33,462 nt of DNA from Thermoplasmatota archaeon (GCA_030595765.1 JAUVCJ010000001.1:1-33462), one strand, 5' to 3'. Numbered from the stretch's first letter, positions 1,728-18,691 are shown. Notes: generated from the letters alone by a model not told the origin. Translations and numbers: made by a program.

Positions 1728-2697
1728 TTTGATTCGCCTCCAACAATTTTTGAAGATAACCTCTAAAAAAATACGAAGTCTTTTTGGATATTGCCTTCTC
1801 AATCGTGCTGGTCATTTCAAATTCTCCATCAGCTTCAACAACAATATCCTCTCGCATAGCTCTAATGACCTCTCCTGTCTGTTTTATGGACGGCGAGGGA
1901 AGAAAAGCATCAAGTACGTGCATAAATCTCATATGCGTACACCATTCGTCTGCGATAGCCTCTGCTTCAAGCAATACTTCAGGGCTTACTCCTGGCTTCC
2001 TTTTGCTCGTAGTCTCTCGAAAAGCATCGTTTTTGTGTTTGGCAATCGTACGTTTTCCATTGTTCTGGGTCAGTTCTATAAGAGGTCTGATAACAATCCC
2101 TTCCCTGGCCTTATCCCCTTCAATCCCAAGCATCTTCGACACCAACGATGGCCTATCCCTCACTTCATCCAATTTTTCCAACGTACAATCGATTATCTCA
2201 CCTGGAACGCACATTAGATCGAGCTTTTCACAAAGTGGTGGTATTTTTTCAAATGAAAGGAAACAATCATCCACCTGTATCTCAAACACAATGAACTGAT
2301 TTGTCTTCCCATAGGTTCCAGACATCTTCATAAGCTTCCCTCCAAAGTGTTCACCATAAATCCTCACTTTTTTCTCTCCGAAAATCTCCGTAAGTTTGAA
2401 ATGTAGGGCTTCCTCGTCAAAAAGAGCCTCGAAATTCATCTGTTTTGCACCGCCAGGATGAAAATTCATTCTCTTGCTATCTCCATAATAGAGAATCCAC
2501 GCTGAAGTTCCGTGAACTTTTTCGGTGACCCACACTTTCTTGAACATCATTATTGTTTGGTCAGAATACAAATTTGGTATTTTCATATATCCCATTTTCA
2601 TTTCTCCTTCAATCATTCCCATAAATTGTAATCTACGAGCCAAAAGCCACCAGGCCTGAACACTGAGCAAGTTCAAGTTCTGTAATAAAGCGGTCAA
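1720..2697 (-). CDS. ATP-dependent RNA ligase, Rnl2-like (T4 RNA ligase 2 / DRB0094-type nucleotidyltransferase)
   Basis: The covalent nucleotidyltransferase motifs appear in the canonical order: I EKVHGTS (compare T4 Rnl2 EKIHGTN), III FIVFEIQV, IV EGIVIRP, V TIAKHKND. The listed start is TTG at 2697 and overlaps the GTPase stop (2694..2696). In-frame ATGs at 2622, 2616, 2601, 2595 and 2586 are alternative starts. Confidence 0.75.
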   Translation of the reverse strand: MTALLQNLNLLSVQAWWLLARRLQFMGMIEGEMKMGYMKIPNLYSDQTIMMFKKVWVTEKVHGTSAWILYYGDSKRMNFHPGGAKQMNFEALFDEEALHFKLTEIFGEKKVRIYGEHFGGKLMKMSGTYGKTNQFIVFEIQVDDCFLSFEKIPPLCEKLDLMCVPGEIIDCTLEKLDEVRDRPSLVSKMLGIEGDKAREGIVIRPLIELTQNNGKRTIAKHKNDAFRETTSKRKPGVSPEVLLEAEAIADEWCTHMRFMHVLDAFLPSPSIKQTGEVIRAMREDIVVEADGEFEMTSTIEKAISKKTSYFFRGYLQKLLEANQND

Positions 2698-3545
2698 ACC
2701 TGGTGGATCCAGTTCTTTCTCTTCTCCAGCTTCCGCATGGCTTCTGCCTGGCCCAGCGCCCCCAGCTCCACTTTCATGAGCTTGTTCACCAAAGCCATTG
2801 CATGGGTCTTGGTGGGGTTGTTGATGTCGAGATTGACAGCTTTTGCCTGCTGCCTGGCTATGGCCATTGCATATTCAGCATCCCGACCCATGCCCTGGCA
2901 GAAATCGGTGATGATGGCGTCCAGCACCTTGGAAAGAGTAGGCCTCCCGCTTGAAAGCTTCTGCTCTACAGCTATCCTGGGAACCTTCTGCCTGGCAGGA
3001 GTGGAAACTCCTGTACCCAATAAGCGGCCGCCAAGCATTTCAAAGACCTTCTCGATGTTCTCTCCGGTCTTTGCGCTGGTCAGGAAACCCTCTGAACCAA
3101 GCTCTAGTGCCAGCTCGTTGATCTCATCAAGGCCATATTCCCGCTTGTCAACAAGGTCAGCCTTGTTGCCGATCACCATCATGGGAACCTCCAGACCCTC
3201 TGAATACATCTTGGCCATCCAGTACTCCCTCAAACTCTCAAGGGTCTGCTTCCTTGTAAGATCACAGACCAGTAGTGCCCCTTGTGCTCCCCGGAAGGCA
3301 GAAGAGAGTATCATCTCGAAGTCCCTCTGGCCTATGACGTCCCATATCATCAACTCCAGCATTGTTGCGCTGGCCTGATGAGTGATTTGCATGGTCTTTC
3401 TGGAGATCTTAGTTCCAAGTGTTGCAATATATTTATCATCAAAAGTATCGGTCACAAACCGTTTGATGCAACTGGTCTTTCCAACTGCATGATCCCCTAG
3501 AAGAACCACCTTCTTCCTAACTTCCCTGGTTTGGACGCCTGCCAC
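2694..3545 (-). CDS. Ras/Rab-like small GTPase with about 100-aa C-terminal helical extension
   Basis: All five G boxes are present: G1 GDHAVGKT, G2 IATLGT, G3 WDVIGQ, G4 GNKADL, G5 TSAKTG. The start is GTG at 3545. Residues from about 185 to 283 (…DAIITDFCQGMGRDAEYAMAIARQQAKAV…) match no family I can name. Confidence 0.85.
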   Translation of the reverse strand: MAGVQTREVRKKVVLLGDHAVGKTSCIKRFVTDTFDDKYIATLGTKISRKTMQITHQASATMLELMIWDVIGQRDFEMILSSAFRGAQGALLVCDLTRKQTLESLREYWMAKMYSEGLEVPMMVIGNKADLVDKREYGLDEINELALELGSEGFLTSAKTGENIEKVFEMLGGRLLGTGVSTPARQKVPRIAVEQKLSSGRPTLSKVLDAIITDFCQGMGRDAEYAMAIARQQAKAVNLDINNPTKTHAMALVNKLMKVELGALGQAEAMRKLEKRKNWIHQV

Positions 3546-3759
3546 AGATACCGCATTCCTTTTAAGTGACCCCGAGCAGCCTCGATAGTTTCAAGTAAAT
3601 TGCCACAAAGAGCCAATATATAAAGGACAAGGCAATATTTTATCTTTACTGCACAGGCGCAATTCTGAGAAAATTGATTGAGCCAGACCCCAAAACATGA
3701 GCTTATTGTTGATATTGTCTGTAAAGGTCTGTAAAGAGATGAAGAGCTTTTCACCAGAA

Positions 3760-3802: not shown

Positions 3803-3927
3803 GTGGGCTGACGGCCATAGCGGCAGGGTCACACCCGGTCCCATCTCGAACCCGGAAGTTAAGCCTGCCTGCGTTCTCCGTTGTACTGTGGTGCGCGAGC
3901 CCACGGGAAGCTTAGGTCCTTGAGGCA
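3803..3927 (+). rRNA. 5S ribosomal RNA (archaeal type), not linked to 16S/23S in this window
   Basis: It contains the conserved 5S blocks GGCCATAGCGGCAGGG…CACCCGGTCCCATCTCGAACCCGGAAGTTAAGCCTGCCTGCG…GTACTGTGGTGCGCGAGCCCACGGGAA. The helix II, III and IV pairings are visible by eye. The ends are uncertain by about 5 nt because the terminal helix is weak. Confidence 0.85.
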
Positions 3928-4062: not shown

Positions 4063-7000
4063 CTAACCGCTCGTGCTATCACAGTTCTGCTTACCACCGG
4101 TCTGTTTCCTACCAGCTTCAGCTTTTCTGCGCCTCCTCCTCATAAAAATCATACAGAGAATAATTATTCCGCTGGGAGCCATGATATCAGAGAACTCTGG
4201 TATTACCTGGGTTGAGGCATTATCCTGAGAGTGTTCCAGTGCAATGCCCTTTCGCTCATAATCGAGGCCAACTATGTTGTTCAAGAAAAAGGACGTTGCA
4301 GGGTCATCGATCTGGACAGTTATCGTAAAGGAGTTGAGCGTGTTCTTTCTAACCCTTGTGAAGACATATTCCAGGGGGTTGCCGGCGGTGTCCGAGGAAT
4401 CATAGCTTCCATGTGAACTCGCAGTATCGCTGACATAGGTTACTCCAGATGGTAGGGTGTCATTGATCCATACAGTATCAGCATCCCTGTCTCCAGTATT
4501 ATTGAAATATATCGTATAGGTCAGCAGGCTCCCGGGCAAAGCGGTTGTCAGGTCCACTGTTTTTCCAACTGTGATTTGAGGTCTCTTTATCCCGGTTGAA
4601 GCGCTGGCATGGGTTGAGGGCTGAATGTCTCCGGTCAGATTGGTATATGTCGCGTGAACTGTGTTCGTAATGGTAGAGCCATTCACCACCCCTATGGCCG
4701 TTAGGATGTCAAATTCAATTATACCTCCTATTGGAACCCCTGAAAATATGTAACTCATCTCCTGCCCATTAATGGCGCCTGATACAAAATAACCAGAACC
4801 GCTTGCATCATCGCTTACATGAGTCGCCCCTTCTGGCAGGGTGTCGTTCACCCAAATTGTGTCTGCTGTATCTCCACCAATGTTTTCCAAGGCGATCGTA
4901 TATGTAAGACTATCACCCATTTCCACATCCACCTTGCTGCCTACTTTTGTTGTGTCCATATATGGCCCAGGAAGAGTCACTGTCGTATCTTCTGTAGCCT
5001 GTTTGGGTGTTATTGGAATGCCCAGCACATCTTCGGCTTCGACATCGATAATATTGGTTATCAGGCCGCTAATCGGAAGTGTTACATCAAATGATATCGT
5101 GAATGTGATTGTAGCCCCATCAGCAAGCCCTGAGAACTCAAACAATAGTGGATTGCTGGTGGTGTCTGAGCTCACAAAATGTGAATCAGAACTGCTTGTA
5201 TCCGAGAGATAGACCAACCCGGATGGGGATGTATCGTTGACCCAAATAGCTCCGGTCGTGCCGTCACCGGTGTTTTCCACTGTGATCGTGTATGTTAGGG
5301 TATCTCCGATGGTCACCGGATCAGCCGAGCCCAGCTTGGTCACATCCAGGTCTGGCTCGTTCTTGTCATTTGGCTTTCCTTTTGTGTTCACTACAGATTT
5401 ATACCAATCTTTGCTGCTATCATCGTCATCTGGGTAACCAGTATCCCCTAAGCGATACCGAGCATGGGTCTCTCCACTTTTTAGCCTTATTCCATTGAAG
5501 CCGTCTATCTCAACGCCGCTGGAGTCGAATATGCGAATAAGCGGGGGGTCATCGCCTAAGACTGTCCCCAAGTCCACCACCAGATATTCACTGCCTGATA
5601 GCCAGGCTCCAATAGAAGTTCCAGCAGGGAACGTGTATATTATTATGCCTGCACCTCTGCCAGCCCTGATAGTCCATCCTGATAGGTCCACTGCAACGCC
5701 AAGGGGGTTTGCCAGCTCTACCCAATCATTTGAGCCAAAAGAGCTTATTTCATTGACCACGACATTTGTTGCCTGGGCTCTTGAGGTGTACTCACTAGCT
5801 CTGGTATCATACCTATGGATGCCAAGGTCGGAAAGGTCAGAGTGCAATTCAGAGTCTTGGGTCCAGTCCGAAGTGGAAAGCCAGGCTTCAAAGTCAGATG
5901 TATCGTTGATACCGATACTTGAATAGTCAACCTGTAGCTCCAGAGAGTCCGAATCCAGCGCGGCAGAGATATTGCTCACGAAAGTCCAATTCCATTCAAC
6001 ATTGGATGTTCCTGAATAGGTGTAGAATATGGATGAGAGTATTCTGTTGTCCCTCCCTGTCACCTCTATTAGGGCTTCGGCTCCAAACGGCGCGCCATTA
6101 GAGTAACCGGTATCTAGGTCACGGTCGAGGTCAAGAAATACCATGGCATAATCAAGACCCTTGAGCTCCTCGATCTCAATGGGTCTAACTATTGGGGAGC
6201 TGATGTACAGCTCTCCCAGATAGGTGTCATTGCCATTGGGCCAATCACGTATGCCGTCACCATCGGTATCGATATGAGCCACCTCGTCGAAGCCGTCATT
6301 ATCATCATCAGAATCATTGAACCAGTCAATGCCATCATTGTCGTAGTCCTGCCAGTTATCAGGCTCGTCTATGTCTGGAATGCCATCACCGTCGGTGTCA
6401 CGGAGTGGAAGGCCGATGAATATCGACACATTTCTGCCACTGTATGGTTCGGGGTAGCTCGTTGGAATGGTTGTTTCCAGATAAGTATCGTTGCCATACG
6501 GATAATCCATCACTCCATCACCATCCACGTCCCGATTGGTCTCTCTATCGGGTATACCATCATTATTGAAATCTCCCTGGAATGCCAGAGGTTCAAGGTA
6601 GTCCGGAACTGTGTCCAGGTCATAGTCTGGCTTGGAAACCGACCGTAGTTTCACAGCTGGCACACTGGTTCCGCCAAGCATTGAGCCAGACACCTTGAAT
6701 AAAAATGACAGGTCTCTGGTGCTAGCTACCATATGATAGGAGGTCAGGTCGATGTTCGGGTTGATAGCATCTCCAACCCGGTCATTGTAGGGGACGAACC
6801 TGTTCCAGTCCGCAAAGGCGCCATCAACCACCACCCAGTCCGGAATGCTCTCCAGGTAATATGAGCTCAGCTCTTGAGAGTGGAGCGTCACTGGCTCCAA
6901 AGTGGCGATGTCGGCAGGAGATACCAGACGGAGCCCAAAGGATGAGCCAGGCAAAACAGATATCGGAACATCCACGGTGGTAAAGAGCGTGATGTTGTTT

Positions 7001-10000
7001 CCGGGTTCCACTCTCAGGCTCGGAGAGAAGTTTACGGTGCATCCATCGATCTGGAGGTTACATGTTCCGATTATCGGATCATCCTGGCCAAACACCCCGT
7101 CTTGATTTAGATCCCTATGAAGCGAAAGAGCCTCGATCACAGTGTCGTTCCCCTGCCTGTGAAAGCGAATGGACTCAACGTCAATGCTTGAAGCCTGGGC
7201 TGAAAGCTCAAGGCTCAGAACCTCCTGGTCATCGTCAGCATGTAAAATAGGTAATGAAGGCGAATTCTGAATTACCTGAAGTGCGCCAATGGTTGGAGTA
7301 ATTATCATATCTGTAAAGTCCTGGCTCATCTGAGTGACCGCCATGTTATTGGTCAGATGGAATATTGCCCTGATATTTTCTCTTAGAGTGAGGTCAATGG
7401 TTCCGGAAAGGAATTTTCCCTCTATGGTATTGCCCGATGTAGCGAGTTTGGGAGCAGTTGGAACCGGGTTGAAACCATTCCAGTCCATGGGATCAGACTC
7501 CGAATCAAAGATGAACATCGCAATGGATGTTACCCTGTTTGACCACCCATGCGTCTCCAATAGGTAATCAGCCCCCATGTCCTGAACGATATATCCAGTG
7601 TCTGGATTATTATCAGTATCCAAAAACACCCTAAGAGAATCAGTGCCAAACTCGCCTCTGAATATCTCTGGGCCAACAACTTCAAGGAAGAATGAAAGCT
7701 CTCCTGATCTGGTTGCCAGACCATAGCTCTGGATGTTGATGCTTTCGGAAATTCCATGCTCATAGCCATCATAATAAACTGCCTGACCGTCCCAGTCCGA
7801 CCTATCGCCATCTATCAAAAGGCCTGGTTCGCCATCAGGAAGCAAGAAATGGGACAAAAATGGAGCACTAAGCAGTAGAATGAATATCATGCATATTGCC
7901 ATGAAACTGCGCAGCATCCTGCCAGGCTCTGGCTCGAACCGACCCCTATACATCTGCCTGTTACCGTTGACAAGGCCGTTGCCGTTGACAAGGCCACGAG
8001 AGAAAAGACCATTGACAAGGCCGTTGCCGTTGACGAAGCCGTTGCCATTTATCAGGCCATTCCCGTTGATAAGGCCACGATTTGCACCTGTGCGAAGGCC
8101 ATTGACGAGGCCGTTGCCATTAATCAATCCACGACCGTTGGTAAGGCCATTGACAAGACCGCGACCATTGATGGCACCTCGGCCGTTTACGAGACCGCGA
8201 CCATTGATGGCACCTCGACCGTTTACGAGACCACGACCATTGATGGCTCCTCGACCGTTGATAAGACCACCAGGCAGGCCATTGACAAGACCACGACCAT
8301 TGATGGCTCCACGGCCGTTGGTAAGACCATTGACCAGACCGCGGCCGTTGATGGTTCCGCGGCCGTTGCTAAGGCCGCCAGGCAGGCCATTGACAAGACC
8401 GCGACCATTGACTGCTCCACGACCGTTGGTAAGACCATTGACCAGTCCACGGCAATTTATGGCTCCACGGCCGTTTACCAAACCTCTGCCATTCACTGCA
8501 CCAGTTCCATTTACAAGGCCAAAATCATCCCGGTCTGAAACCCTGATAGGGAATAGTGAATCTTTCGTGAAAGGGGTGCCATTGGTCAGGCCTAGTCCAT
8601 TTACAAGGCCAAGCTTCTCACGATCCGGATAACGCTGTGGGGGCTGGGTCGAGAGGGCAGTAATTCGTTTTCCAGATGGTTGTGGGATAAGTGAGGCCTT
8701 TCCGTCTCCATCTAAAAGGATGCTATTGAGCACATCAACCTTGATGGAAGCCTCCATATCGAGGTTCAGCTCCGCAGCCTTATCGAAGCAAACCATGGCC
8801 TCTTCCTTCCGGCCAAGCATCCACAGAAGCTTGCCCTTGGAGTGCCAGGCTCGATAAAGGCCGGCATCGGCATCCAATAATTCATCAAAGAACCCAACCT
8901 GACCCTCGAGGTCGCTTACCCTACTCTCTTCCTCTGGGCTTAGGCCAGCCTTATGAGCTTTTCGTGCTGCCTTTTTCGGCATGGGTCTAGGCCTCTTTCG
9001 AGGCTGTGGAGGCTCTGGTGGCATAATCGATGCTGCAAGGGATGCCTGCTCCTCAAGAATCGACCTCTCCTGCTCAGAAATTACCTTCTCAACAAGCTCC
9101 GTTCCTACAAGTTCATCCTCAAAAATGACCTCATCATCCAAAGATGGCTCATCTACATAGGGCTCTTCTCCAATGGGAATACCGTCAACAGGAATGAGCT
9201 CATCATCAGAAGCTACTAGTTCCTCCTCAAAGATGGGTTCTTCCTCAAAGAAAGGCTCTTCCTCAAAGCCTAGTTCTCCTTCTAGAACGGACTCTTCCTC
9301 AAAGGCTGGTTCTCCTTCTGGAATGGGCTCTTCCTCAAAGAAGATTTCATCATCAGAGATGATTTCCTCGGTAGGAGCCGCATGCTCCTTCTCAAAGGCG
9401 GGTGCTTCGTCCAAGGGAAGCCCATCAACAGACATTGGCTCTTTTTCCAGGGAAGATTCAGCATCAGGCGCCACCGGCTCATCAGGTATCTGGGCTTGGG
9501 ACTCTTCCTCCACTACACCCTTCCATCTCTTCCTGAAGTCCTGGGATATCCCTCCCTTCCTCCTCTTGGGTTTTGCTGACCCGGTGCCTGCACTGTGGCC
9601 GCACAAAGCGCAGTGGTCAGCACCCTCCATCAATGGAGCGCCACAGTTGGCACACAATCCGTCTGTTGGCAGGTCTGGTGCTTGTGGCTCAAAGTCTCCA
9701 CTGGGCTCAGGATCCTGTGTCTCAGGTTCTAGGGCAATGTCAAAAATGTCATCAATGTCGGGAAGCTCTTCTGGTTTGGAGGTTATGGATGGAGCCAATG
9801 GAGCAGGCTCAAGCTCCTCCTCGATCTCGTCCACTTCAAACATGGGTGCTTCTACAAACTCATCGGCCTCAATGCCAATGTCATCATCAAACACACCTTC
9901 TCGGGGGATGGTGCCACCTGCCAGTTCTTCCTCGTCGATCTGAGTCCCACAAACTGGGCAGTCCTCCAACTCCTCTGAAAGCAATGCTCCGCAATCTTTG

Positions 10001-12159
10001 CAGATATACAACTCCTGGATCTCTGGCTTCTCGTCCTCTACGGGTCCGGCGACTCCTTCCTCATCAAGCTCAGATGCTCCTTCCTCCTCGAAGATGCCCA
10101 TGAACTTCTCCAGCTCATCCATCTGGGCTCTTTCCTCTTTAGCGGAGGATTCGTCGCTAACCTCTTCAGGCAATGCCTCTCTAGCAGTTCCTTCCCATGC
10201 AAGCTCACTCTCAGAAACTGCCTTCTCAACAAGCTCCGCCTCTACAACTTCCCCCTCATCACGCTTCCCCTCGACAAGAACCTCTTCAGCAAGTTCATCC
10301 TCGACGAGCTCGTCTATGCTGTCGAATGCCATTCCACAGAGCACGCAGCTGGCCATATCCGAGCTGTTGGTGGCGCCACACTTTGGGCAGGTTCTCATCT
10401 CAATACTATCCTGCTCACTGGCACCAGCTGTGTCGTCAGTAGCAGAATCAACATCACCATCCAGCTCTGGCTGTTCACCCAAGCCCAGGAACGCTCTTGC
10501 GGCCTGTATGGCCTCATCCTCTTCTTCATCAACTTTCACTTTCTCGACATCAGCTTCAAGTTCTGACCCGAGTTCTGACCCAAGTTCAGACCCAAGTTCA
10601 GATTCAGCAACTGCTCCTGTATCAGCATCAAAGCCTGAACCAGAACTGATATCGACCTCACCAGATACAACGTCGGCTTCGGCATCAGCTTTGACAGCGG
10701 CCTCGATACCGATCTCTGCATCGGCCTCAGCACCGGCCTCAACACCAACTTCATCATCGGCCTCAAACAATGCACCGCATATCTGGCACCCCTCTGCGCC
10801 TGCCGGTACGAATGCCCCGCAATTCGGGCACATATCCAGCTCATTATCCCCACGATACCAGTAACCATCCTGATCCTTATCTGCCTGAGATCTTCCTGCA
10901 ACTTCGGCTTTCTGAACCTCTTCGGCATCCTCTGATGTGTCCTGCTCATCGCCAGCCTCGAACACAGCGCCACAAATCCCGCATTCTTCGGAGTCGGGAG
11001 GCACAAAAGCCCCACAGTTGGGACACATCTCTATGTGAGTCTCGTCCTTGTACCAGTAACCGTCACGATCCTCGTCTTCTGGGATATGGACTTCTTCGCC
11101 ACCCTCCTCGCCATCATCTTCCTCGACCCCGCCAAACACGGCGCCGCAGATCTGGCATTCCTCTGAGTCAGGAGGCACGAAAGCACCACAGTTCGGGCAC
11201 ATCTCCAGGCTTGCCTCGTCCTTGTACCAGTAGCCGTCTGTGTCTGATCCGGCTTTTCCTCCTGGCTCTAGCTCACCGTCAGATGCTTCTCCAGTGGCAG
11301 CCTCGGAGCCATCCCCAACAGCAACACCATCATCCTCATCTGTGCCAGCCTCGAACACTGCACCGCAAATACCGCATTCCTCTGAATCTGGAGGAACAAA
11401 GGCGCCGCAGTTCGGGCACATCTCCAGGTTTGCCCCATCCTTGTACCAGTAGCCATCAGTATCAGGTCCAGCTTCTGCTCCTGGCCCTAGCTCACCTTCA
11501 GATGCTTCTCCAGTGGCAGCCTCAGAGCCATCCTCAACATCAATCCCTTCATCGTTTTTTGTGCTGGCCTCGAACACAGCACCGCATATCTGGCATTCCT
11601 CTGAATCTGGAGGCACAAAGGCACCGCAGTTCGGGCACATCTCCAGGCTTGCCTCATCCTTGTACCAGTAGCCATCAGTATCAGAACCGGTTCCTGCCTT
11701 TGGCTTACCACCAGATGAGTCTTCAGTGGCAGGCTCGGAACCGTCCTCAACAGCAACACCATCATCCTCATCTGTGCCAGCCTCGAACACTGCACCGCAG
11801 ATCTGGCATTCCTCTGAATCTGGAGGTACGAAAGCACCGCAATTGGGGCACATCTCCAGGTTCGATTCGGTCTTGTACCAGTAATCGTCAGTCTCCTGGC
11901 CAGTCAAGGCTTCATCAGCCTTTCGCTCAGCTTCCCTTTGGACCGCTTCCTCAACTTTGATTCTAGCATGCTCAAGAAGGTTTACGGCCAATACAGCTCC
12001 AAAGCCTCCAAGAACTAGAATGTCATGGATATCGGCGGAGAGCAATCTCTTCCATGAGTCGTAACCGGCTTCCACCAGCAATTGGGCCTTCAAAGGGCCA
12101 ATTTTTGGAACTCGTTGGAGCTCCTCCACAAAATCCTTGGTCATTATACATGCATCCAA
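4063..12159 (-). CDS. Giant (2,698 aa) bitopic protein: cytoplasmic HhH + 9 zinc ribbons + acidic linkers + TPR + NGRG hexapeptide repeats, one TM, adhesin-like ectodomain, PEF-CTERM-like tail
   Basis: This is a single uninterrupted ORF. Conserved motifs occur throughout (see sub-features), which argues that the whole frame is coding. A second in-frame ATG (MTKDF…) lies at 12144. Confidence 0.9.
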   Translation of the reverse strand: MDACIMTKDFVEELQRVPKIGPLKAQLLVEAGYDSWKRLLSADIHDILVLGGFGAVLAVNLLEHARIKVEEAVQREAERKADEALTGQETDDYWYKTESNLEMCPNCGAFVPPDSEECQICGAVFEAGTDEDDGVAVEDGSEPATEDSSGGKPKAGTGSDTDGYWYKDEASLEMCPNCGAFVPPDSEECQICGAVFEASTKNDEGIDVEDGSEAATGEASEGELGPGAEAGPDTDGYWYKDGANLEMCPNCGAFVPPDSEECGICGAVFEAGTDEDDGVAVGDGSEAATGEASDGELEPGGKAGSDTDGYWYKDEASLEMCPNCGAFVPPDSEECQICGAVFGGVEEDDGEEGGEEVHIPEDEDRDGYWYKDETHIEMCPNCGAFVPPDSEECGICGAVFEAGDEQDTSEDAEEVQKAEVAGRSQADKDQDGYWYRGDNELDMCPNCGAFVPAGAEGCQICGALFEADDEVGVEAGAEADAEIGIEAAVKADAEADVVSGEVDISSGSGFDADTGAVAESELGSELGSELGSELEADVEKVKVDEEEDEAIQAARAFLGLGEQPELDGDVDSATDDTAGASEQDSIEMRTCPKCGATNSSDMASCVLCGMAFDSIDELVEDELAEEVLVEGKRDEGEVVEAELVEKAVSESELAWEGTAREALPEEVSDESSAKEERAQMDELEKFMGIFEEEGASELDEEGVAGPVEDEKPEIQELYICKDCGALLSEELEDCPVCGTQIDEEELAGGTIPREGVFDDDIGIEADEFVEAPMFEVDEIEEELEPAPLAPSITSKPEELPDIDDIFDIALEPETQDPEPSGDFEPQAPDLPTDGLCANCGAPLMEGADHCALCGHSAGTGSAKPKRRKGGISQDFRKRWKGVVEEESQAQIPDEPVAPDAESSLEKEPMSVDGLPLDEAPAFEKEHAAPTEEIISDDEIFFEEEPIPEGEPAFEEESVLEGELGFEEEPFFEEEPIFEEELVASDDELIPVDGIPIGEEPYVDEPSLDDEVIFEDELVGTELVEKVISEQERSILEEQASLAASIMPPEPPQPRKRPRPMPKKAARKAHKAGLSPEEESRVSDLEGQVGFFDELLDADAGLYRAWHSKGKLLWMLGRKEEAMVCFDKAAELNLDMEASIKVDVLNSILLDGDGKASLIPQPSGKRITALSTQPPQRYPDREKLGLVNGLGLTNGTPFTKDSLFPIRVSDRDDFGLVNGTGAVNGRGLVNGRGAINCRGLVNGLTNGRGAVNGRGLVNGLPGGLSNGRGTINGRGLVNGLTNGRGAINGRGLVNGLPGGLINGRGAINGRGLVNGRGAINGRGLVNGRGAINGRGLVNGLTNGRGLINGNGLVNGLRTGANRGLINGNGLINGNGFVNGNGLVNGLFSRGLVNGNGLVNGNRQMYRGRFEPEPGRMLRSFMAICMIFILLLSAPFLSHFLLPDGEPGLLIDGDRSDWDGQAVYYDGYEHGISESINIQSYGLATRSGELSFFLEVVGPEIFRGEFGTDSLRVFLDTDNNPDTGYIVQDMGADYLLETHGWSNRVTSIAMFIFDSESDPMDWNGFNPVPTAPKLATSGNTIEGKFLSGTIDLTLRENIRAIFHLTNNMAVTQMSQDFTDMIITPTIGALQVIQNSPSLPILHADDDQEVLSLELSAQASSIDVESIRFHRQGNDTVIEALSLHRDLNQDGVFGQDDPIIGTCNLQIDGCTVNFSPSLRVEPGNNITLFTTVDVPISVLPGSSFGLRLVSPADIATLEPVTLHSQELSSYYLESIPDWVVVDGAFADWNRFVPYNDRVGDAINPNIDLTSYHMVASTRDLSFLFKVSGSMLGGTSVPAVKLRSVSKPDYDLDTVPDYLEPLAFQGDFNNDGIPDRETNRDVDGDGVMDYPYGNDTYLETTIPTSYPEPYSGRNVSIFIGLPLRDTDGDGIPDIDEPDNWQDYDNDGIDWFNDSDDDNDGFDEVAHIDTDGDGIRDWPNGNDTYLGELYISSPIVRPIEIEELKGLDYAMVFLDLDRDLDTGYSNGAPFGAEALIEVTGRDNRILSSIFYTYSGTSNVEWNWTFVSNISAALDSDSLELQVDYSSIGINDTSDFEAWLSTSDWTQDSELHSDLSDLGIHRYDTRASEYTSRAQATNVVVNEISSFGSNDWVELANPLGVAVDLSGWTIRAGRGAGIIIYTFPAGTSIGAWLSGSEYLVVDLGTVLGDDPPLIRIFDSSGVEIDGFNGIRLKSGETHARYRLGDTGYPDDDDSSKDWYKSVVNTKGKPNDKNEPDLDVTKLGSADPVTIGDTLTYTITVENTGDGTTGAIWVNDTSPSGLVYLSDTSSSDSHFVSSDTTSNPLLFEFSGLADGATITFTISFDVTLPISGLITNIIDVEAEDVLGIPITPKQATEDTTVTLPGPYMDTTKVGSKVDVEMGDSLTYTIALENIGGDTADTIWVNDTLPEGATHVSDDASGSGYFVSGAINGQEMSYIFSGVPIGGIIEFDILTAIGVVNGSTITNTVHATYTNLTGDIQPSTHASASTGIKRPQITVGKTVDLTTALPGSLLTYTIYFNNTGDRDADTVWINDTLPSGVTYVSDTASSHGSYDSSDTAGNPLEYVFTRVRKNTLNSFTITVQIDDPATSFFLNNIVGLDYERKGIALEHSQDNASTQVIPEFSDIMAPSGIIILCMIFMRRRRRKAEAGRKQTGGKQNCDSTSG
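4066..4200 (-). other. PEF-CTERM-like sorting signal (PEF + TM helix + RRRRRK), followed by an unusual 19-aa tail
   Basis: The C-terminus reads …QVIPEFSDIMAPSGIIILCMIFMRRRRRKAEAGRKQTGGKQNCDSTSG. PEF is encoded at 4192..4200. Confidence 0.6.
4215..5350 (-). repeat. Three DUF11-type ('conserved repeat domain') Ig-like modules
   Basis: The pattern …(V/L)TK/GK…GD(T/S)LTYTI…ENTG/NIG/NNTGD…(I/V)W(V/I)NDT(S/L)P(S/E)G…Y(L/V)SD… recurs three times with a period of about 125 aa. Confidence 0.7.
5440..5775 (-). other. Lamin-tail-domain (LTD)-like segment
   Basis: VVVNEISSFGSNDWVELANPLGVAVDLSGWTIRAG…LVVDLG…IRIFDSSGVEIDGF matches the typical LTD signature (INE…fVELyNp…vdLsGW). Confidence 0.6.
6225..6580 (-). 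other. Asp-rich Ca-binding-like repeats (thrombospondin type-3-like DxDxDGxxD)
   Basis: The motifs are DFNNDGIPDRETNRDVDGDGVMDYPYGNDTYL, then DTDGDGIPDIDEPDNWQDYDNDGIDWFNDSDDDNDGFDEVAHIDTDGDGIRDWPNGNDTYL. Confidence 0.6.
7838..7917 (-). other. Only internal hydrophobic segment of the giant protein (signal-anchor / TM helix)
   Basis: …YRGRFEPEPGR-MLRSFMAICMIFILLLSAPFLSHFLL-PDGEPG. Arg-rich sequence on the N-terminal side implies an N-in/C-out orientation by the positive-inside rule. Confidence 0.75.
7960..8612 (-). repeat. Asn-Gly-Arg-Gly hexapeptide tandem repeats (NGRG[LA][VI]; 18/36-nt DNA units), about 215 aa
   Basis: The protein reads …GLVNGRGAINGRGLVNGRGAINGRGLVNGRGAINGRGLVNGLTNGRG…. 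Near-identical 36-nt DNA units are visible, e.g. at 8160..8270. Confidence 0.9.
9590..10400 (-). other. Three divergent zinc ribbons (numbers 7-9) embedded in poly-acidic linkers
   Basis: The three ribbons are RTCPKCGATNSSDMASCVLCGMAF, YICKDCGALLSEELEDCPVCGTQI and GLCANCGAPLMEGADHCALCGHS. Confidence 0.8.
10758..11890 (-). repeat. Six tandem zinc-ribbon modules D(D/G)YWY(K/R)-x6-MCPNCGAFVP(P/A)…C(Q/G)ICGA(V/L)F with acidic linkers
   Basis: The module is repeated every 180-220 nt. The YWY codons lie near 10855, 11040, 11225, 11445, 11663 and 11875. The ribbon cores are nearly identical at DNA level. Confidence 0.9.
11965..12123 (-). other. Two helix-hairpin-helix (HhH) motifs at the N-terminus of the giant protein
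   Basis: ELQRVPKIGPLKAQLLVEAGYDSWKRLL and ILVLGGFGAVLAVNLLEHA fit the hxxhxGhGxxxAxxh HhH pattern. Confidence 0.6.
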
Positions 12160-12185
12160 GACGCTTGACCCGTCTTAGTATAGAG

Positions 12186-12206
12186 AACATATTAATGCAT
12201 TATAAC
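12186..12206 (-). promoter_or_regulatory. Candidate TATA region for the giant gene
   Basis: The minus strand reads …gttataatgcattaatatg…, 30-46 nt upstream of ATG 12159. This would give a very short leader. Confidence 0.3.
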
Positions 12207-12212
12207 AATAGG

Positions 12213-12236
12213 ATAGACACGTATCTATTATAGATA
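12213..12236. promoter_or_regulatory. ATAGA / TCTAT palindrome cluster (candidate operator)
   Basis: The sequence ATAGAcacgtATCTATtATAGAT contains a perfect 13-bp palindrome (atctat-t-atagat). This overlaps a 16-bp palindrome with one mismatched pair. The cluster lies just upstream of the TATA-like region of the giant gene. Confidence 0.35.
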
Positions 12237-12329
12237 ACATTAAGGCTTACAAAAATTTGTATGTATGCATCATGTGTTAGGCCAAAACGAAAGTAGAGAT
12301 GATTGGAAAACCCTTTCTTGCCAAAATAG

Positions 12330-13040
12330 TCAGATCCGGACTTCGCTGAAAGGGTCGGTAGAGACTATCAGGGTGTGAACCTCCCTGTCCATTTTTAGCT
12401 TTAGTATGAGCTCAAGGTCGGTCATTCTTACCACTTCAGGACTTAACCCTTCCTCTTTTAGCTTGTTGAGCAGCCGCTCCTTGAAACTTCTGGTTCTGGC
12501 GCTTCGACCCTCGCTAAGGGTTGCCAGCAATGCTGTTGGGTAGTAGCGGCGAAACCTGCCATCCTCGACAACCTCCAGCAGACCCTGGACCTGGAGCTCC
12601 TTTGCGTGCTTTCCTGTGGTCTGATGTGCGGTATTGAGCCTTGCTCCCAGCTCCTTTTGGGTCGAACCAGGGGATCTTAATATCTCCATGAACATAGCTC
12701 TGGTCCGTGACCTGTTCAGGAGAAGAAGTATCGGAAGTTCGTCTGGGTCAAGCAATCCCACAGGGCAGAAAGCGCATCTTCCTCCACTGCGAACCTGGAA
12801 GATGTATTGCCCCTGACGTAGCTTATCCAGATGCCACCTGAGGGTGTGCATGTCCATCCCCAACCCTGATGAGATATCTCCCTGATAGGAGCCTGGATGT
12901 TTGCATAAAAAAGTGTAGATGTTTCTCCGTCTTTCATTGACCAGAGGAGAGCGAAGACCCCTGCGCTTTTTGATGCCTGCAGATGGCAAGATATCTTTGC
13001 CAAGCGCCTTGTTCAAAGCCTTTCCCATTCTCTGGGGCAT
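12330..13040 (-). CDS. Transcription regulator with two winged helix-turn-helix domains (ArsR/MarR-like)
   Basis: wHTH 1 is RRRNIYTFLCKHPGSYQGDISSGLGMDMHTLRWHLDKLRQGQYIFQVRSGG. wHTH 2 is RTRAMFMEILRSPGSTQKELGARLNTAHQTTGKHAKELQVQGLLEVVEDGRFRRYYPT. The start lies 10 nt after the KaiC-like gene stop. Confidence 0.75.
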   Translation of the reverse strand: MPQRMGKALNKALGKDILPSAGIKKRRGLRSPLVNERRRNIYTFLCKHPGSYQGDISSGLGMDMHTLRWHLDKLRQGQYIFQVRSGGRCAFCPVGLLDPDELPILLLLNRSRTRAMFMEILRSPGSTQKELGARLNTAHQTTGKHAKELQVQGLLEVVEDGRFRRYYPTALLATLSEGRSARTRSFKERLLNKLKEEGLSPEVVRMTDLELILKLKMDREVHTLIVSTDPFSEVRI

Positions 13041-13050
13041 GCATTCATCC

Positions 13051-13914
13051 TCAGAGATACTCTTCGAGTATGTATTTGACTAGCTCTTCGGCAGGCAGGT
13101 CCTCAAAATCACCGTCAGTGAGCTCACCAAGGGTTTTTGCCATGTGAGTGGCAACAGATGCAGGTAGCTTGCTGCTCTTCAGAATTGATTCTAGCTCCAT
13201 TGGAATGGTCCTTGAGTCATCCACACGATATTCTCCATGCTGGACTATTAGCCCCAGCCCTTTTATTATACGGTATGGGTGGGAAAGTTCGCTATGACGG
13301 GTGGATCTTGCTTTAACTATCTTGAGCATCCTGTAGGCTCCGCCTTCCATTGCCCGATAACGCAGGTGCATGACACAATCAGCCAGGTACATCGGGATGA
13401 TAGTTTCGGATCCAGACAGGTCACTGGCTGTACCATGCTCTTCAAGGGTGCACAGCACGGTCCCGACCTTCCTGGTCTGCTTGAGTAGAAATGATATCAG
13501 GTCCCGTTGCTCATAATGATCCTTGGTGGACCACATCACAGGGGTCAGAGGATCGACGACTATCCTAGCATTCGAGCCCTTCCAATCCTCCACAAAGGAT
13601 GGCAATTCCTTTCTGATGAAGGTGGAAAACTCCCTGCCAGAGGCATCAATGAACACAAGCTGCTCCTCCTCCAGGTACCTAAGGATGTCTGGCCAACCCA
13701 TCTCTACGGCCTCGCGTATTATCTGCTCCTTGTTCTCGTCCAGGCTGACAAATATCGCTTCCTGGCCAAGCTCCAGTCCTCTTCGAATGAACTGGGTGGC
13801 AAAGGTGGTCTTGCCTGCGCCTGAGCAACCAATGACAACTGTGGTGGAGTTCTCGTTGATCCCGCCATCCAGAAGTGGGTTCAATCCGTAAATGCCGCTC
13901 TTGATCTTCTTCAA
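13051..13914 (-). CDS. KaiC-like RecA-superfamily ATPase (single domain) with about 60-aa C-terminal extension
   Basis: The N-terminal motif is SGIYGLNPLLDGGI, Walker A is GCSGAGKTT and the Walker B-like strand is ARIVVDPLT. The overall layout is that of archaeal COG0467-type KaiC/RadA-like proteins. Confidence 0.85.
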   Translation of the reverse strand: MKKIKSGIYGLNPLLDGGINENSTTVVIGCSGAGKTTFATQFIRRGLELGQEAIFVSLDENKEQIIREAVEMGWPDILRYLEEEQLVFIDASGREFSTFIRKELPSFVEDWKGSNARIVVDPLTPVMWSTKDHYEQRDLISFLLKQTRKVGTVLCTLEEHGTASDLSGSETIIPMYLADCVMHLRYRAMEGGAYRMLKIVKARSTRHSELSHPYRIIKGLGLIVQHGEYRVDDSRTIPMELESILKSSKLPASVATHMAKTLGELTDGDFEDLPAEELVKYILEEYL

Positions 13915-14093: not shown

Positions 14094-14525
14094 TCAACCT
14101 ACCTGAAGCTCCCAGAGGTCGGTCTCGGGATTAAGCTCCCTTATCATTTTTGCCTTGCTTATCTTGTAAACTGCAATCTCATTTAGAACCCAGACAGTCC
14201 CTCTGTTGAGGTGGCCTCCAATGACCTTGTGGTCAGAGCCAGCTAGGTTTACATGGACGTGTATCATCATCTTCCCTTTACTGTTCCTGGCTGCAGTTCC
14301 CTGCATGGATGTCAGCTCGTGTGGCTCTACATGATGTTGAGTGTCATAGCCCTCTTCCTTGCCAGCAAAATAGCTCAGCTCAAAATCGGTCATCATGCCA
14401 ATGCCAACAGCAATAACTGCCGAGTCAATGCCATATTTCTCCAATGCCGCTTCCATGCTGGAGTGGAAGTCCTCGCCTGGATGCAATCGAATTATCAATA
14501 CCTCGTTGTCAAGTGATGTCTGCAT
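14094..14525 (-). CDS. PPC/DUF296 domain protein (PD1-like DNA-binding fold family)
   Basis: LIIRLHPGEDFHSSMEAALEKYGIDSAVIAVGIG… and …MMIHVHVNLAGSDHKVIGGHLNRGTVWVLNEIAV match the characteristic DUF296 pattern (HlH..l....g...GGHl..g.v..t.E). Confidence 0.65.
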   Translation of the reverse strand: MQTSLDNEVLIIRLHPGEDFHSSMEAALEKYGIDSAVIAVGIGMMTDFELSYFAGKEEGYDTQHHVEPHELTSMQGTAARNSKGKMMIHVHVNLAGSDHKVIGGHLNRGTVWVLNEIAVYKISKAKMIRELNPETDLWELQVG

Positions 14526-14906: not shown

Positions 14907-15593
14907 CTAATCTCTCGGCCCCTTCAGCCATCTCAACATCTTGGCCGCTGCTGCTGCTGCTCCAAAACCGTTGTCGATATTGACCACTGTTATGCCTGGA
15001 GCGCAGGAGTTAAGCATTCCCAGAACAGCGGAGAGCCCCCCCATTCCAGTTCCGTATCCCACCGAGGTTGGAACTCCAATCACTGGGGTCTTGATTCCTC
15101 CAGCGATCACCGACGGTAGAGCGCCTTCCATGCCTGCAACAACTATCAGAACATCCAGGTCGTGCTCTGTTATGAGTTGGACAGCTTGCTCCACCCTGTG
15201 GATGCCAGCAACTCCGCAGTCATAGCAACGATGGACCTTTAGACCCATGAACTCAGCAGATATTGCTGCTTCTTCAGCCACAAAATAATCAGAGGCTCCA
15301 GCAGAGAGTATTCCGATGTTTCCCTTTGAGTCAGGCCACTTGTAACCCTGCTGGGTCATCACCATGGTACCTGCAGTCCGGTCATAGGAATGCATGATAT
15401 CCTCGAAATTCTCAAGCAACATATCGATCTGTTGGTCTGTTGCCTTGGTGACCAGCACTTTTCCGTCTGGAAGTAGACCCATCACTGCTCCGATCAGCTG
15501 GGAGTCATCCTTGAACCTGGCAAACACCGCCTCTGGTATGCTGGATCTAGCCTCTCGCCCGGGATCTGCCTTCACGGGCGTGTCCTCATTCAT
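14907..15593 (-). CDS. larB: LarB, pyridinium-3,5-biscarboxylic acid mononucleotide synthase (PurE-like, nickel-pincer cofactor pathway)
   Basis: ILSAGASDYFVAEEA…VVAGMEGALPSVIAGGIKTPVIGVPTSVGYGTGMGGLSAVLGMLNSCAPGITVVNIDNGFGAA is the hallmark of the COG1691/LarB family. Confidence 0.85.
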   Translation of the reverse strand: MNEDTPVKADPGREARSSIPEAVFARFKDDSQLIGAVMGLLPDGKVLVTKATDQQIDMLLENFEDIMHSYDRTAGTMVMTQQGYKWPDSKGNIGILSAGASDYFVAEEAAISAEFMGLKVHRCYDCGVAGIHRVEQAVQLITEHDLDVLIVVAGMEGALPSVIAGGIKTPVIGVPTSVGYGTGMGGLSAVLGMLNSCAPGITVVNIDNGFGAAAAAAKMLRWLKGPRD

Positions 15594-15685: not shown

Positions 15686-16525
15686 TCAAGCCTTCCCTAG
15701 GTCATTGGCACCACCCATCTTATATCCTTCCAAGTCCAAAGCAACGTGCAAAAAGCCCAAAGCCTTGATTGGCGGCACAATATCCCGTAGCTCAGCTAGG
15801 TTGGGTGTTTCGTCAGGGCCAAGCTCGATCCTAGCAAGCTCGCCTTGATGCCGTACCCGAACCTCACGATATCCCTGGCTCTTGAGCAGGTCTTCAGCCT
15901 TCTCTATCATTGTAAGCTTCTGCATGGTTATCTCACTGCCCCATGGGATACGGGAGGCCAAACAGGCCATTGCCGGCTTATCCCAGGTGGATAGCCCAAG
16001 CATTCTGGATATCTCACGGATATGTTCCTTGGTAAGGCCAGCATCCTGAAAAGGGCTAATAACCCCTAGCTCACCTGTAGCTTTGGCACCAGGACGATAA
16101 TCTGAAAGGTCGTCAATGTTGGACCCATCCAGCAGATGTGAGCAACCTCTGGATGTCATCAGCTCTTTTAGAGCTCCGAACAACTCCAGCTTGCAATGAT
16201 AGCAGCGTTTCGAACCGTTCCTGAGAATGGCTGGATCTGCAAATATGTCATGCTTCACCACCTCCAACTGGAGCTTATGGTCTCTAGCAAAGCTCATTGC
16301 AAACTCCAGCTCCTTTCGAGGTATGAAAGGGGAATCGATCAGACCAAGTTGGGTATCCGGCACAAGGCTTGAAGCAATAAAGGCCAGCAGGGAACTGTCT
16401 ACCCCGCCTGAGAACGCCACCAATGGCCTTTCCATTTCCTTTAAAGCACGAATGAGAGTGCGAAAACGCTCTCCACTGTCCTGAGACATCTTGTCTGCAA
16501 TGCTTAAAAGGTCAGTTTCATCCAT
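15686..16525 (-). CDS. larE: LarE, PP-loop ATP-dependent sulfur transferase (nickel-pincer cofactor pathway)
   Basis: The PP-loop is VAFSGGVDSSLLA. The COG1606-type core includes KRCYHCK (CxxC) and MACLASRIPWG. Confidence 0.85.
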   Translation of the reverse strand: MDETDLLSIADKMSQDSGERFRTLIRALKEMERPLVAFSGGVDSSLLAFIASSLVPDTQLGLIDSPFIPRKELEFAMSFARDHKLQLEVVKHDIFADPAILRNGSKRCYHCKLELFGALKELMTSRGCSHLLDGSNIDDLSDYRPGAKATGELGVISPFQDAGLTKEHIREISRMLGLSTWDKPAMACLASRIPWGSEITMQKLTMIEKAEDLLKSQGYREVRVRHQGELARIELGPDETPNLAELRDIVPPIKALGFLHVALDLEGYKMGGANDLGKA

Positions 16526-16582: not shown

Positions 16583-17395
16583 TCATTCCTTGGTAAGGCT
16601 TGCACTCATGCCGCAGCTCGGACATGTGATGGACTTATTTTTGGGGTTGAAATTAAAATCTTTTTTGCACGACGGACAGGTCACACTGGGCAAATAACTC
16701 CGAGAAGAGGGCTTAGTGGTTGCCGAGGCCATGGTTGTTACAGGAGGTGTAACAGGAGGAGTTACAGGAGGGGTGGTTGCTGAGGGAGCCTTATTCACTT
16801 CAGGAGGTAGTATCTGAATCTGAGGCGAAGGTGCAACTGACACACTGGCGGTAACGTTCTGATAGGGCTGCTCGATATTGACAGTGACACCATTATGCTG
16901 CCCATAGCTGGGATGATTCGAGGATATGTGGGCGATGAAGGCTGAACCAGCACCTATCATCCCCGAGGGAACTAAGAACATGCTAAGTTGGACGATTGCC
17001 TGACCCCAATCCACATTTGGAGTGTAGGAGTATCCAGCAGAAGTGGTAAAAGTCACTGGAAACTTGATGCTGATAGCTACTGCTAAAAATGAGATTATGA
17101 TTAACATGAGAAGCAGATAGCCTATCATTCCAGAGACACTGCCAATTAGAATAGCGGAAAACCTGCTACTACTAGACCGGCCCTGTGATGCGCCTGTGAA
17201 CAATGAGATTATCGGAGAAACGATTATAACAAGTAAGCACCCAGCGAGGCCGAACACGCCAGACAAAACGGAGTAGGAACCATTCAAAAAAACTATAGAG
17301 GAAAAATATGCCAGGCCAAATGCCAGGCCAACAAGAACAAAATATGTTACGCCAAAACCTATGCTTTTTACAAGCTCTATCTCTTTTTGATCCAT
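16583..17395 (-). CDS. Membrane protein (4 TM) with Pro/Thr-rich linker and C-terminal zinc ribbon, paralogue 1
   Basis: The TM helices include FGVTYFVLVGLAFGLAYFSSIVF and LLMLIIISFLAVAI. The linker is TPPVTPPVTPPVT and the C-terminus is LPSVTCPSCKKDFNFNPKNKSITCPSCGMSASLTKE. Confidence 0.7.
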   Translation of the reverse strand: MDQKEIELVKSIGFGVTYFVLVGLAFGLAYFSSIVFLNGSYSVLSGVFGLAGCLLVIIVSPIISLFTGASQGRSSSSRFSAILIGSVSGMIGYLLLMLIIISFLAVAISIKFPVTFTTSAGYSYTPNVDWGQAIVQLSMFLVPSGMIGAGSAFIAHISSNHPSYGQHNGVTVNIEQPYQNVTASVSVAPSPQIQILPPEVNKAPSATTPPVTPPVTPPVTTMASATTKPSSRSYLPSVTCPSCKKDFNFNPKNKSITCPSCGMSASLTKE

Positions 17396-18537: not shown

Positions 18538-18691
18538 ATCGATCTCCAATAGGGATATCGAAAATGGGCTTTTTATGTCTTTCACAGCAAAGAGCCGAGC
18601 CGTATATCTCACAGGAAAAATGGTGCGGGAACTAGCTATTACCTGTTGCCAGGCAACCACGATATAATGAGTACAATTGCCCTAGCCGTCC

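Follow-up and report, generated by a model that had tools for sequence, protein, structure and literature searches.

Why do the genes for a KaiC-like ATPase, a winged helix-turn-helix (wHTH) regulator and a giant envelope protein follow one another on one strand of an archaeal genome, and does the first pair govern the third gene? The question is raised by positions 4,063 to 13,914 of a 33,462-nucleotide (nt) stretch from a Thermoplasmatota archaeon (GCA_030595765.1, JAUVCJ010000001.1:1-33462), the whole of which we call the window. KaiC-like ATPases are the most expanded and the least understood candidate signalling proteins of archaea, and very few of them have a known partner or target. Makarova, Galperin and Koonin are said to have proposed in 2017 (mBio 8:e01959-17, as cited by PMC13286277 and PMC6393860) that these ATPases are archaeal signalling hubs. 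A preliminary description of the window, made from its sequence, placed all three genes on the minus strand, and the open reading frames (ORFs) were confirmed at their coordinates. The module has the following parts, listed in the direction of transcription.

13051..13914, minus strand: single-domain KaiC-like (RAD55/GvpD-type) RecA-fold ATPase of 287 amino acids (aa), with a TTG start
13041..13050, minus strand: gap of 10 nt between the stop of the KaiC-like gene and the start of the wHTH gene, read directly
12330..13040, minus strand: tandem winged-helix protein of 236 aa, from Pfam and an AlphaFold2 model
12145..12329, minus strand: AT-rich spacer with 34% GC, the presumed promoter of the giant gene, from reading of the sequence
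12222..12236, no strand assigned: palindrome TATCTAT-A-ATAGATA, a candidate binding site, in a region (12213..12236) that includes a third TCTAT
4063..12144, minus strand: giant envelope protein of 2,693 aa counted from the ATG at 12144; the ORF reaches a TTG at 12159 (2,698 aa)

The answer that we favour, at slightly less than an even chance, is that the KaiC-like protein and the wHTH protein would form an ATP-dependent switch of transcription, with the giant envelope gene as the main linked target. Depending on the nucleotide, the ATPase would determine how active, how stable or in what oligomeric state the wHTH protein is. The wHTH protein would control the giant gene's own promoter downstream, and probably other promoters too. 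The product of this gene would combine an outer adhesin-like stalk, made of a lamin-tail domain (LTD), CLIPPER/DUF11 domains and a PEF-CTERM-like anchor, with inner docking modules, namely a double helix-hairpin-helix domain, (HhH)2, zinc ribbons and tetratricopeptide repeats (TPR). From the established order and conservation of the genes, their domain content, the promoter of the giant gene and non-coding blocks kept in one clade, we infer three things: binding of the wHTH protein at the giant promoter, its modulation by the ATPase, and the place of the giant as main target. Recurrence of the trio in dozens of uncultured Thermoplasmata suggests an undescribed cell-envelope control unit. The module is a well-delimited case, with a conserved ATPase, one regulator family, one unusual linked gene and a 52-nt candidate operator in one clade, and this phylogenetically broad three-part system makes the hub idea directly testable.

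About 135 orthologous loci were gathered from Thermoplasmata genomes and metagenomes. They came from an exact homologue look-up, a scan of species-representative genomes and a metagenome scan with a DNA pattern encoding the diagnostic peptide RIxxDPLTPVxW, which was found in all 20 orthologous loci collected earlier and is missing from a haloarchaeal paralogue. A profile scan of genome contigs with the KaiC alignment yielded at least 13 loci. An ATPase orthologue is present in 114 of the 120 metagenome loci. Of 75 metagenome loci that could be evaluated, 69 have the wHTH gene immediately downstream of it, and so does every evaluable locus from genomes and other assemblies except one. The gap between the two genes has a median of 1 nt, falls between -40 and +12 nt in 63 of 81 cases, and often turns into an overlap of the ORFs. 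In the window it is exactly the 10 nt given in the preliminary description, which implies a single transcript. The operon proposed there is thus supported by the short gap, by the near-constant adjacency and by the abutting or overlapping ORFs of orthologous loci, and the pair is probably both co-transcribed and translationally coupled.

A giant of the same family follows the wHTH gene in 39 of 60 evaluable metagenome loci. In the genomes and other assemblies, 14 of the 20 loci that could be evaluated have the giant associated with the pair, the locus L021 being counted among them. The complete trio is seen in 11 genome or assembly loci (L001, L002, L004, L006, L007, L008, L014, L019, L020, L022 and L144); the tally is 13 with the window and the truncated L009 added, and 14 with L021. 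The genes upstream of the trio vary: PolD-DP2 and thioredoxin, PdxS, an acetyltransferase or, in the window, a PCC-domain gene with LarE further upstream. In L106 the gene order is kept although a 280-aa insertion is present. L021 belongs to a closed 5.16-Mb Thermoplasmata genome (CP070751.1, 4354186-4375055), where one 20-kb cluster contains three giant paralogues (locus positions 4924-9921, 13085-18049 and 18310 onward), the orthologous KaiC/wHTH pair, and a second HTH gene (202 aa) with a KaiC-like gene (231 aa). Recurrent genomic co-occurrence had been named in advance as the deciding test of the module, and it was found for the pair and for the giant in several flanking contexts. The adjacency counts, the varied upstream contexts, the L106 insertion and the CP070751.1 cluster all speak for a switch linked to the giant. 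The association is real but not obligatory: the pair often occurs without the giant, which makes the pair the core and the giant a partner frequently linked to it.

The ATPase starts with LKKIKSGIYGLN, which lines up with MKKIKSGIYGLN of its homologues. Pfam KaiC (PF06745) covers residues 4-225 (E = 2.9e-37; 128.7 bits at a cut-off of 26.6; profile positions 1-227 of 231). A sequence search of PDB returned the CI domain of KaiC at about 1e-37, followed by PH0186, SSO2452 and PH0284. The protein carries a Walker A motif (GCSGAGKTT), the pair D59-E60, Walker B D121 and R203/H207; G32-A-G-K35-T36, D59-E60, D121 and R203/H207 are invariant columns in 14 orthologues, their matching to residues of KaiC CI being a reading of the alignment. 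From these retained residues the ATPase is predicted to be catalytically competent, and the invariance of the catalytic columns is in line with an ATP-dependent switch. The C-terminal extension of about 60 aa is helical and conserved, and ends in an acidic ..EEY tail (pLDDT about 70 in the model). The structure model of the protein, built from 14 closely similar sequences, had a pLDDT of 47 and was excluded from the fold search.

The ATPase has more than 1,000 homologues at 67-75% identity, and all those with an organism name come from Thermoplasmata archaea, one of them being Proteinoplasmatales SG8-5. The matches listed in the genome scan belong to metagenome-assembled genomes of Thermoplasmata or Methanomassiliicoccales. 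An Asgard origin of the window, which its Ras-like GTPase had suggested at first, was discarded because of these named homologues. The module is specific to an uncultured Thermoplasmata lineage. The ATPase is not a bona fide circadian KaiC: it has one domain in 287 aa and scores 58 bits with TIGR02655 (cut-off 546) and 102 with PRK09302 (cut-off 408). Families KaiB and KaiA were found neither among 20 neighbouring window ORFs nor in annotated orthologous loci. We rejected the identity with KaiC on the grounds of the single domain and the absence of KaiB there. The ATPase lies below the cut-offs of all NCBIfam archaeal KaiC equivalog models. An ArlH/FlaH identity was also rejected (NCBIfam ArlH 42.8 bits, cut-off 215; no arl genes nearby).

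In the wHTH protein, Pfam detects HTH_20 and HTH_24 at residues 35-80 (31.5 and 28.3 bits; cut-offs 27 and 21.9) and MarR_2 at residues 118-162 (41.4 bits; cut-off 27). Domains of DNA-binding ArsR and MarR type thus exceed their thresholds, as a transcription factor at the giant promoter would. The chain begins with a conserved helix (GKAL motif) and a disordered linker, followed by an ArsR-like wHTH1 at residues 36-94, whose recognition helix has an invariant W69-H70. A MarR/ArsR-like wHTH2 (99-168), a long helix (170-196) and a three-stranded sheet (200-227) complete it. Two helix-helix-helix-wing units are seen in the AlphaFold2 model (pLDDT 75), and the sequence matches in PDB are ArsR, MarR, PF0095 and PH1932. 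PF0095 and PH1932 (PDB 2qlz and 1uly) resemble the protein in sequence and in having two winged-helix domains in one chain of about 200-230 aa. The similarity is weak, however (E = 1e-4 to 3e-3), and the window family differs in its N-terminal helix, its C-terminal helix and sheet, and a W-H, invariant and peculiar to the family, in the first recognition helix. An exhaustive phmmer scan delimited the family as 230 clusters (50% identity) at E<1e-10; the best 150 are nearly all about 235 aa long, and the closest match is 40% identical to the window protein. A word-indexed protein search with the window protein retrieved only itself, and a search with a 12-sequence profile retrieved 14 proteins, chiefly of one high-GC sub-clade. 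An identity as an ArsR/SmtB metalloregulator was dismissed (NF033788, 35.3 bits; cut-off 55). A ScpB- or ESCRT-II-like identity is not supported: Foldseek gave only low TM-scores (the tandem-WH proteins ScpB, ESCRT-II and TFIIIC at about 0.25) and single ArsR domains, from which we draw no conclusion on function.

If the wHTH protein acts on the giant gene, the spacer between them is the expected place. The preliminary description had it as 170 nt of AT-rich DNA. Its AT-richness is confirmed, and 170 nt is the distance to the TTG at 12159; the distance to the ATG at 12144 is 185 nt. The latter is most likely the true start because orthologous giants begin with MEEDF or MDESY, and the window ATG gives MTKDF. 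The 46 orthologous spacers measure 62-185 nt, with a median of 88 nt, and that of the window is the longest. A TATA-like box with a TFB recognition element (BRE) lies about 27-35 nt before the giant ATG in every orthologous spacer (for example, GAAACGGTTTATATCC), and the KaiC gene has a BRE/TATA-like box of its own where it does not abut pdxS. The giant gene is therefore predicted to have a separate promoter, and the pair and the giant to be two transcription units.

In the main clade (17-18 distinct loci) spacer alignment columns 1-62, which contain the conserved blocks and the TATA box, have a mean pairwise identity of 66.5%. The figure is 50-57% for third codon positions in the genes on either side and 47% for the remaining spacer. 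The invariant blocks, upstream of the TATA box and including it, are CATGTTAACG, TAGA, TGATAC, GATACAA and TTTAAGTA. The resulting 52-nt element (e.g., L007 5247-5299) was found by nhmmer once per locus in 23 loci, always between the wHTH gene and the giant; the 1.1 Mb of DNA gathered gave no other match. RNAalifold, with 0 pairs for the main clade, and Rfam, with no match in the spacer, ruled out a structured RNA there. These blocks would fit a sequence-specific factor at the giant promoter, and the product of the adjacent wHTH gene is the obvious candidate. In the main clade, few segments of the wHTH protein are as conserved as its two recognition helices (entropy 0.74 and 0.71; most other segments, about 1.0-1.4). 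Across the remaining clades, the second of these helices belongs to the more variable parts of the protein (entropy 2.56). The BRE/TATA box of the giant gene, the spacer blocks of one clade and this pattern of helix conservation all argue for a regulator that would act at this promoter.

In the window itself, the cluster of ATAGA/TCTAT palindromes noted in the preliminary description is present, with four copies (12230-12234, 12224-12228, 12213-12217 and 12180-12184). Four or more copies have p of about 0.007 against 5,000 dinucleotide shuffles, a significance that is overstated as the motif was picked post hoc; the 7-bp inverted repeat by itself has p of about 0.16. The 7-mer of the palindrome has no further occurrence in the window.

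Several observations weigh against the switch as we describe it. The window cluster is only modestly beyond chance, and nhmmer did not detect the main-clade spacer element in the window. Within each locus we also searched for a motif common to the KaiC upstream region and the giant spacer, and found none. The conserved spacer blocks could be bound by another factor. About one third of the loci hold the pair without an adjoining giant, among them L143 and L145, the nearest KaiC relatives (72-75% identical to the window ATPase), and consequently the pair must have a role independent of a neighbouring giant. The genes change at unequal rates: between loci the ATPases are 54-75% identical, the wHTH proteins about 30% and the giants about 30%, which is compatible with the favoured explanation and is not diagnostic of it.

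The giant-less loci also bear on another explanation, that the pair is a general or housekeeping regulator and the giant an unrelated surface protein that came to adjoin it in one large clade, the order being merely inherited. After the pair these loci have other genes, such as RpiA, restriction-modification-like or NurA-like genes. Some loci with the giant also share a common extended order (PolD, thioredoxin, the pair, the giant, Arc_PepC_II, Ras GTPase, permease and mechanosensitive channel), for which common descent could account. However, the trio is kept down to a KaiC identity of 53% and a wHTH identity of about 28-36%, in at least four upstream contexts. Its order outlasts the insertion in L106 and is re-created with paralogues in CP070751.1. 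Gene order seldom lasts at such divergence without selection. We consider inherited synteny unlikely, and turn from the promoter to the presumed target of the switch, whose elements are as follows (all on the minus strand).

11962..12126, minus strand: N-terminal cytoplasmic (HhH)2 (Pfam HHH_5, 31.8 bits)
9580..11850, minus strand: nine CxxC-x10-CxxC zinc ribbons with acidic linkers between them (Pfam DZR, Zn_ribbon_3 and Zn_Ribbon_1; motif count)
9523..9540, minus strand: DFRKRW motif; DFxxRW occurs in 16 of the 21 complete orthologues
8761..8856, minus strand: TPR repeat, cytoplasmic, near the membrane (Pfam TPR_8, TPR_1 and TPR_2 below cut-offs)
7960..8475, minus strand: Gly/Asn-rich G-R-G-L/A-V/I-N repeats directly before the transmembrane (TM) helix (18-, 36- and 108-nt tandem repeats in DNA)
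7840..7896, minus strand: internal TM helix, about residues 1422-1440 (hydropathy 2.34 over 19 residues)
5566..5778, minus strand: extracellular LTD (Pfam LTD, 33.7 bits; cut-off 34.3)
4180..5400, minus strand: three CLIPPER/DUF11 domains, CnaA-like, as in adhesin stalks (DUF11 E = 3.2e-35 in three stretches; TIGR01451 120 bits)
4123..4206, minus strand: IPEF motif, hydrophobic anchor and RRRRRK, a PEF-CTERM-like sorting signal (by pattern)

Twenty-one complete giants (1,440-2,693 aa; 1,440-2,294 aa outside the window) have an identical order of domains: (HhH)2, one to nine zinc ribbons, DFxxRW, TPR, LVNG repeats, TM helix, ectodomain, LTD, CLIPPER/DUF11, and IPE[FLM] with a TM segment and a basic tail. 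The window protein was previously described as a bitopic zinc-ribbon/adhesin protein of 2,698 aa. The domains stand, as does the length if counted from TTG; with two hydrophobic segments, the protein is not strictly bitopic. Repeat expansions in the zinc ribbons (219 nt) and in the GRGLVN region (18, 36 and 108 nt) make it the longest of the 21. The first zinc-ribbon units are recent tandem duplicates (219-nt period, 3.3 copies, 11135..11860, 83% matches). LVNG-type repeats occupy the equivalent position in orthologues. The TPR assignment is supported by TPR_1 matches in orthologues and by consensus TPR proteins in a PDB search (E = 9e-6); TPR is all that this search returned for the juxtamembrane cytoplasmic region. 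No paralogue of the giant was found elsewhere in the window.

A profile of (HhH)2 from 10 orthologues matches the HhH repeats of topoisomerase V (Topo V) with E = 4.5e-22, and also L32e, Hel308, NusA, XPF, UvrC and the N-terminus of RadA. Such a domain next to a RecA-fold ATPase raises the thought of an envelope-anchored device for DNA handling (uptake, export or chromosome tethering), resembling RadA split over two genes, in which the ATPase and the DNA-binding wHTH protein would cooperate with the giant and its inner (HhH)2 as a DNA clamp. The (HhH)2 is indeed like those of RadA/Rad51, ComEA, XPF and Topo V. The ATPase is annotated in the sources as of the RAD55 family, and it matches the aRadC protein SSO2452. 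In bacteria, extracellular nucleases and ComEC occur as fusions with LTD domains, which may also be counted for such a device. Yet the giant has two TM helices and no channel-forming membrane domain, and the module has no conserved nuclease, pilus or secretion-ATPase genes. The ATPase is far closer to KaiC than to RadA (E = 1e-37 vs 5e-4), and (HhH)2 domains can be purely protein-binding, as in the AR domains of NusA. All this makes a DNA-handling device very improbable.

The giant has no N-terminal hydrophobic secretion signal: its first 1,400 or so residues consist of (HhH)2, Cys4 zinc ribbons, acidic linkers and TPR. A TM helix is located at the position of the internal one in all 21 orthologues, and we take it to be oriented with its N-terminal side inside and its C-terminal side outside. 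About 1,200 residues between this helix and the C-terminal anchor are then predicted to be outside the cell. The first 700 or so of them (aa 1440-2135) have no family match, and a PDB sequence search with them returned nothing. The LTD, marginal in the window, is clearly found in orthologues. The CLIPPER/DUF11 domains are located between the two TM segments, in tandem, as in a stalk. In fibrillar adhesins, CLIPPER domains build the stalk and are stabilised by isopeptide bonds; in archaea they are often accompanied by archaeosortase signals (PMC12617251). The outer half of the giant, with tandem CLIPPER domains and a C-terminal PEF-type motif, TM segment and basic tail, is similar to these adhesins, but they begin with a signal peptide, whereas the giant begins with 400-1,400 cytoplasmic residues and then an internal TM helix.

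The C-terminus of the window protein reads IPEF-SDIMAPS, TM segment, RRRRRK and 19 more residues. IPE[FLM] is recognized by pattern in 19 of the 21 orthologues and is visible in the window. With TIGR03024 (PEF-CTERM) the L002 orthologue reaches 24.6 bits (cut-off 23), and the C-termini of the window and L001 proteins are below significance. After the C-terminal TM segment and the basic cluster, the giants of L002, L006, L007, L029, L030 and L118 have a conserved cytoplasmic tail, (G/A)VADSVP..GR. A tail in this place is unexpected for a signal that is simply cleaved by an archaeosortase, and the tail of the window protein is different. No archaeosortase was named among 20 window ORFs scanned with Pfam (five of them also with NCBIfam), within the 33 kb that the window covers. 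With processing of its C-terminal signal, the giant would become a lipid-anchored type II protein. In any case, it couples an isopeptide-type adhesin stalk outside to modules for docking of DNA or proteins inside, which is relevant to the biology of the archaeal envelope. Some members of the class (order Thermoplasmatales) have no paracrystalline S-layer.

Downstream of the giant, the window contains a further gene that recurs in orthologous loci.

2694..3545, minus strand: Ras/Arf-family small GTPase of 283 aa (Pfam Ras, E = 3.4e-35)

Homologues of this GTPase (35-46% identity) lie downstream of the giant in L007 (11600-12145), L020 (17915-18460), L022 (17317-17862), L030, L043, L064, L087, L091 and L118. 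In these loci the GTPase gene is beside an oppositely oriented Arc_PepC_II gene (A24-like, prepilin-peptidase-type), which also occurs after the giant in L001, L002, L006, L019, L029 and L144. Possibly the module has this GTPase as a fourth component. In the window, an RNA-ligase-family gene (PF09414; 1720..2697, minus strand) overlaps the GTPase stop with its start by 4 nt, which suggests an operon of the two. An 85-aa ORF (3497..3754) without a family match runs into the start of the GTPase gene and is probably spurious.

The inner half of the giant and the recurrence of the GTPase also bear on the possibility that the three proteins meet physically. The ATPase, the wHTH protein or both would dock on the TPR, zinc ribbons, (HhH)2 and DFxxRW of the giant, and surface adhesion or strain on the isopeptide-stabilised stalk would be relayed inward, for instance by holding the wHTH protein at the membrane and then releasing it. 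Such a signalling complex is compatible with a transcription switch, and the two can coexist. The cytoplasmic interaction modules are kept in order across the 21 complete orthologues. The acidic ..EEY tail of the ATPase is of a type often bound by TPR domains, the link with the TPR of the giant being our inference. In the wHTH protein, the conserved N-terminal GKAL helix and the disordered linker after it are what one would expect of a docking peptide. Giant paralogues cluster with KaiC-like and HTH genes in CP070751.1, and a Ras-like GTPase recurs nearby. On the other hand, both the ATPase tail and the N-terminal motif of the wHTH protein persist in giant-less loci, so neither is specific to the giant, and the variation in the number of zinc ribbons (from one to nine) argues against a fixed stoichiometric interface. 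We regard the complex as possible, with a clearly smaller probability than that given to the switch.

A bolder version is that the three proteins, possibly with the Ras-like GTPase, make up a single transmembrane signalling machine of a kind new to archaea. The receptor tail of the giant would bind nucleic acid or chromatin through (HhH)2 and zinc ribbons and would recruit the KaiC-type ATPase and the wHTH protein, and contact or strain at the surface would be turned directly into gene regulation or nucleoid tethering. We consider this version decidedly unlikely.

For the transcription switch, which we prefer, known systems offer a precedent, by analogy, in KaiC-like ATPases that act on factors controlling surface or structural genes. 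GvpD, an ATPase of the KaiC/RecA fold, lowers the activity or amount of the activator GvpE encoded next to it, and the pair controls neighbouring gas-vesicle genes. The likeness lies in an ATPase and a transcription factor that are encoded together, with neighbouring structural genes as known or proposed targets; GvpE, however, is of leucine-zipper type and not a tandem wHTH protein, its targets are gas-vesicle genes, and there is no orthology. In Haloferax volcanii the KaiC-like CirA is proposed to tune CsmR, a regulator of surface structures and cell shape, whose binding site is a semi-palindrome beside the TATA box (PMC13286277). A KaiC-like ATPase that is proposed to act on a DNA-binding regulator of surface genes is common to both cases, as a similarity of mechanism and not homology of systems: CsmR is a regulator of another type, and its targets are archaellum, chemotaxis and shape genes instead of a single adjoining giant. 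ArlH (FlaH) of the archaellum motor is likewise a single-domain KaiC-like ATPase with a membrane-anchored surface machine; the window ATPase is far below the ArlH model cut-off, however, and the window has no archaellum genes.

The signalling hub proposal is matched by a gene for a single-domain KaiC-like ATPase beside a gene for a wHTH output protein. The window group departs from it in being restricted to Thermoplasmata and in having a third partner, the giant membrane protein with HhH, zinc-ribbon, TPR and adhesin parts. The preliminary description knew of no system with such a composition, and we likewise found no publication on the KaiC/wHTH/giant module; a prior mention of the pair in the 2017 survey of KaiC proteins is possible. 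An anti-phage defence system was considered and rejected, as PADLOC gave generic matches alone (a P-loop match to mad8, E = 1e-6, and wHTH matches to the Csa3 C-terminus).

Other genes of the window surround the module. Next to the 85-aa ORF, a lone 5S rRNA gene (3807..3926, plus strand; Rfam RF00001, 80 bits) converges on the 3' end of the giant. The PCC-domain gene (14094..14525, minus strand) immediately precedes the KaiC gene. LarE (14907..15593, minus strand; TIGR00268, 285 bits) adjoins a LarB-like gene with an AIR-carboxylase domain (15686..16525, minus strand), and the LarE, LarB-like and PCC genes look like part of a nickel-pincer cofactor cluster. Three multi-TM proteins with a C-terminal CxxC..CxxC zinc ribbon and no family match are encoded at 16583..17395, 17665..18660 and 26203..26766 (minus strand); the first two are paralogues with Pro/Ser/Thr-rich linkers. 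A secreted protein of 622 aa (24082..25950, plus strand), without Pfam or NCBIfam matches, has a signal-like N-terminal segment and a (DGG)n run.

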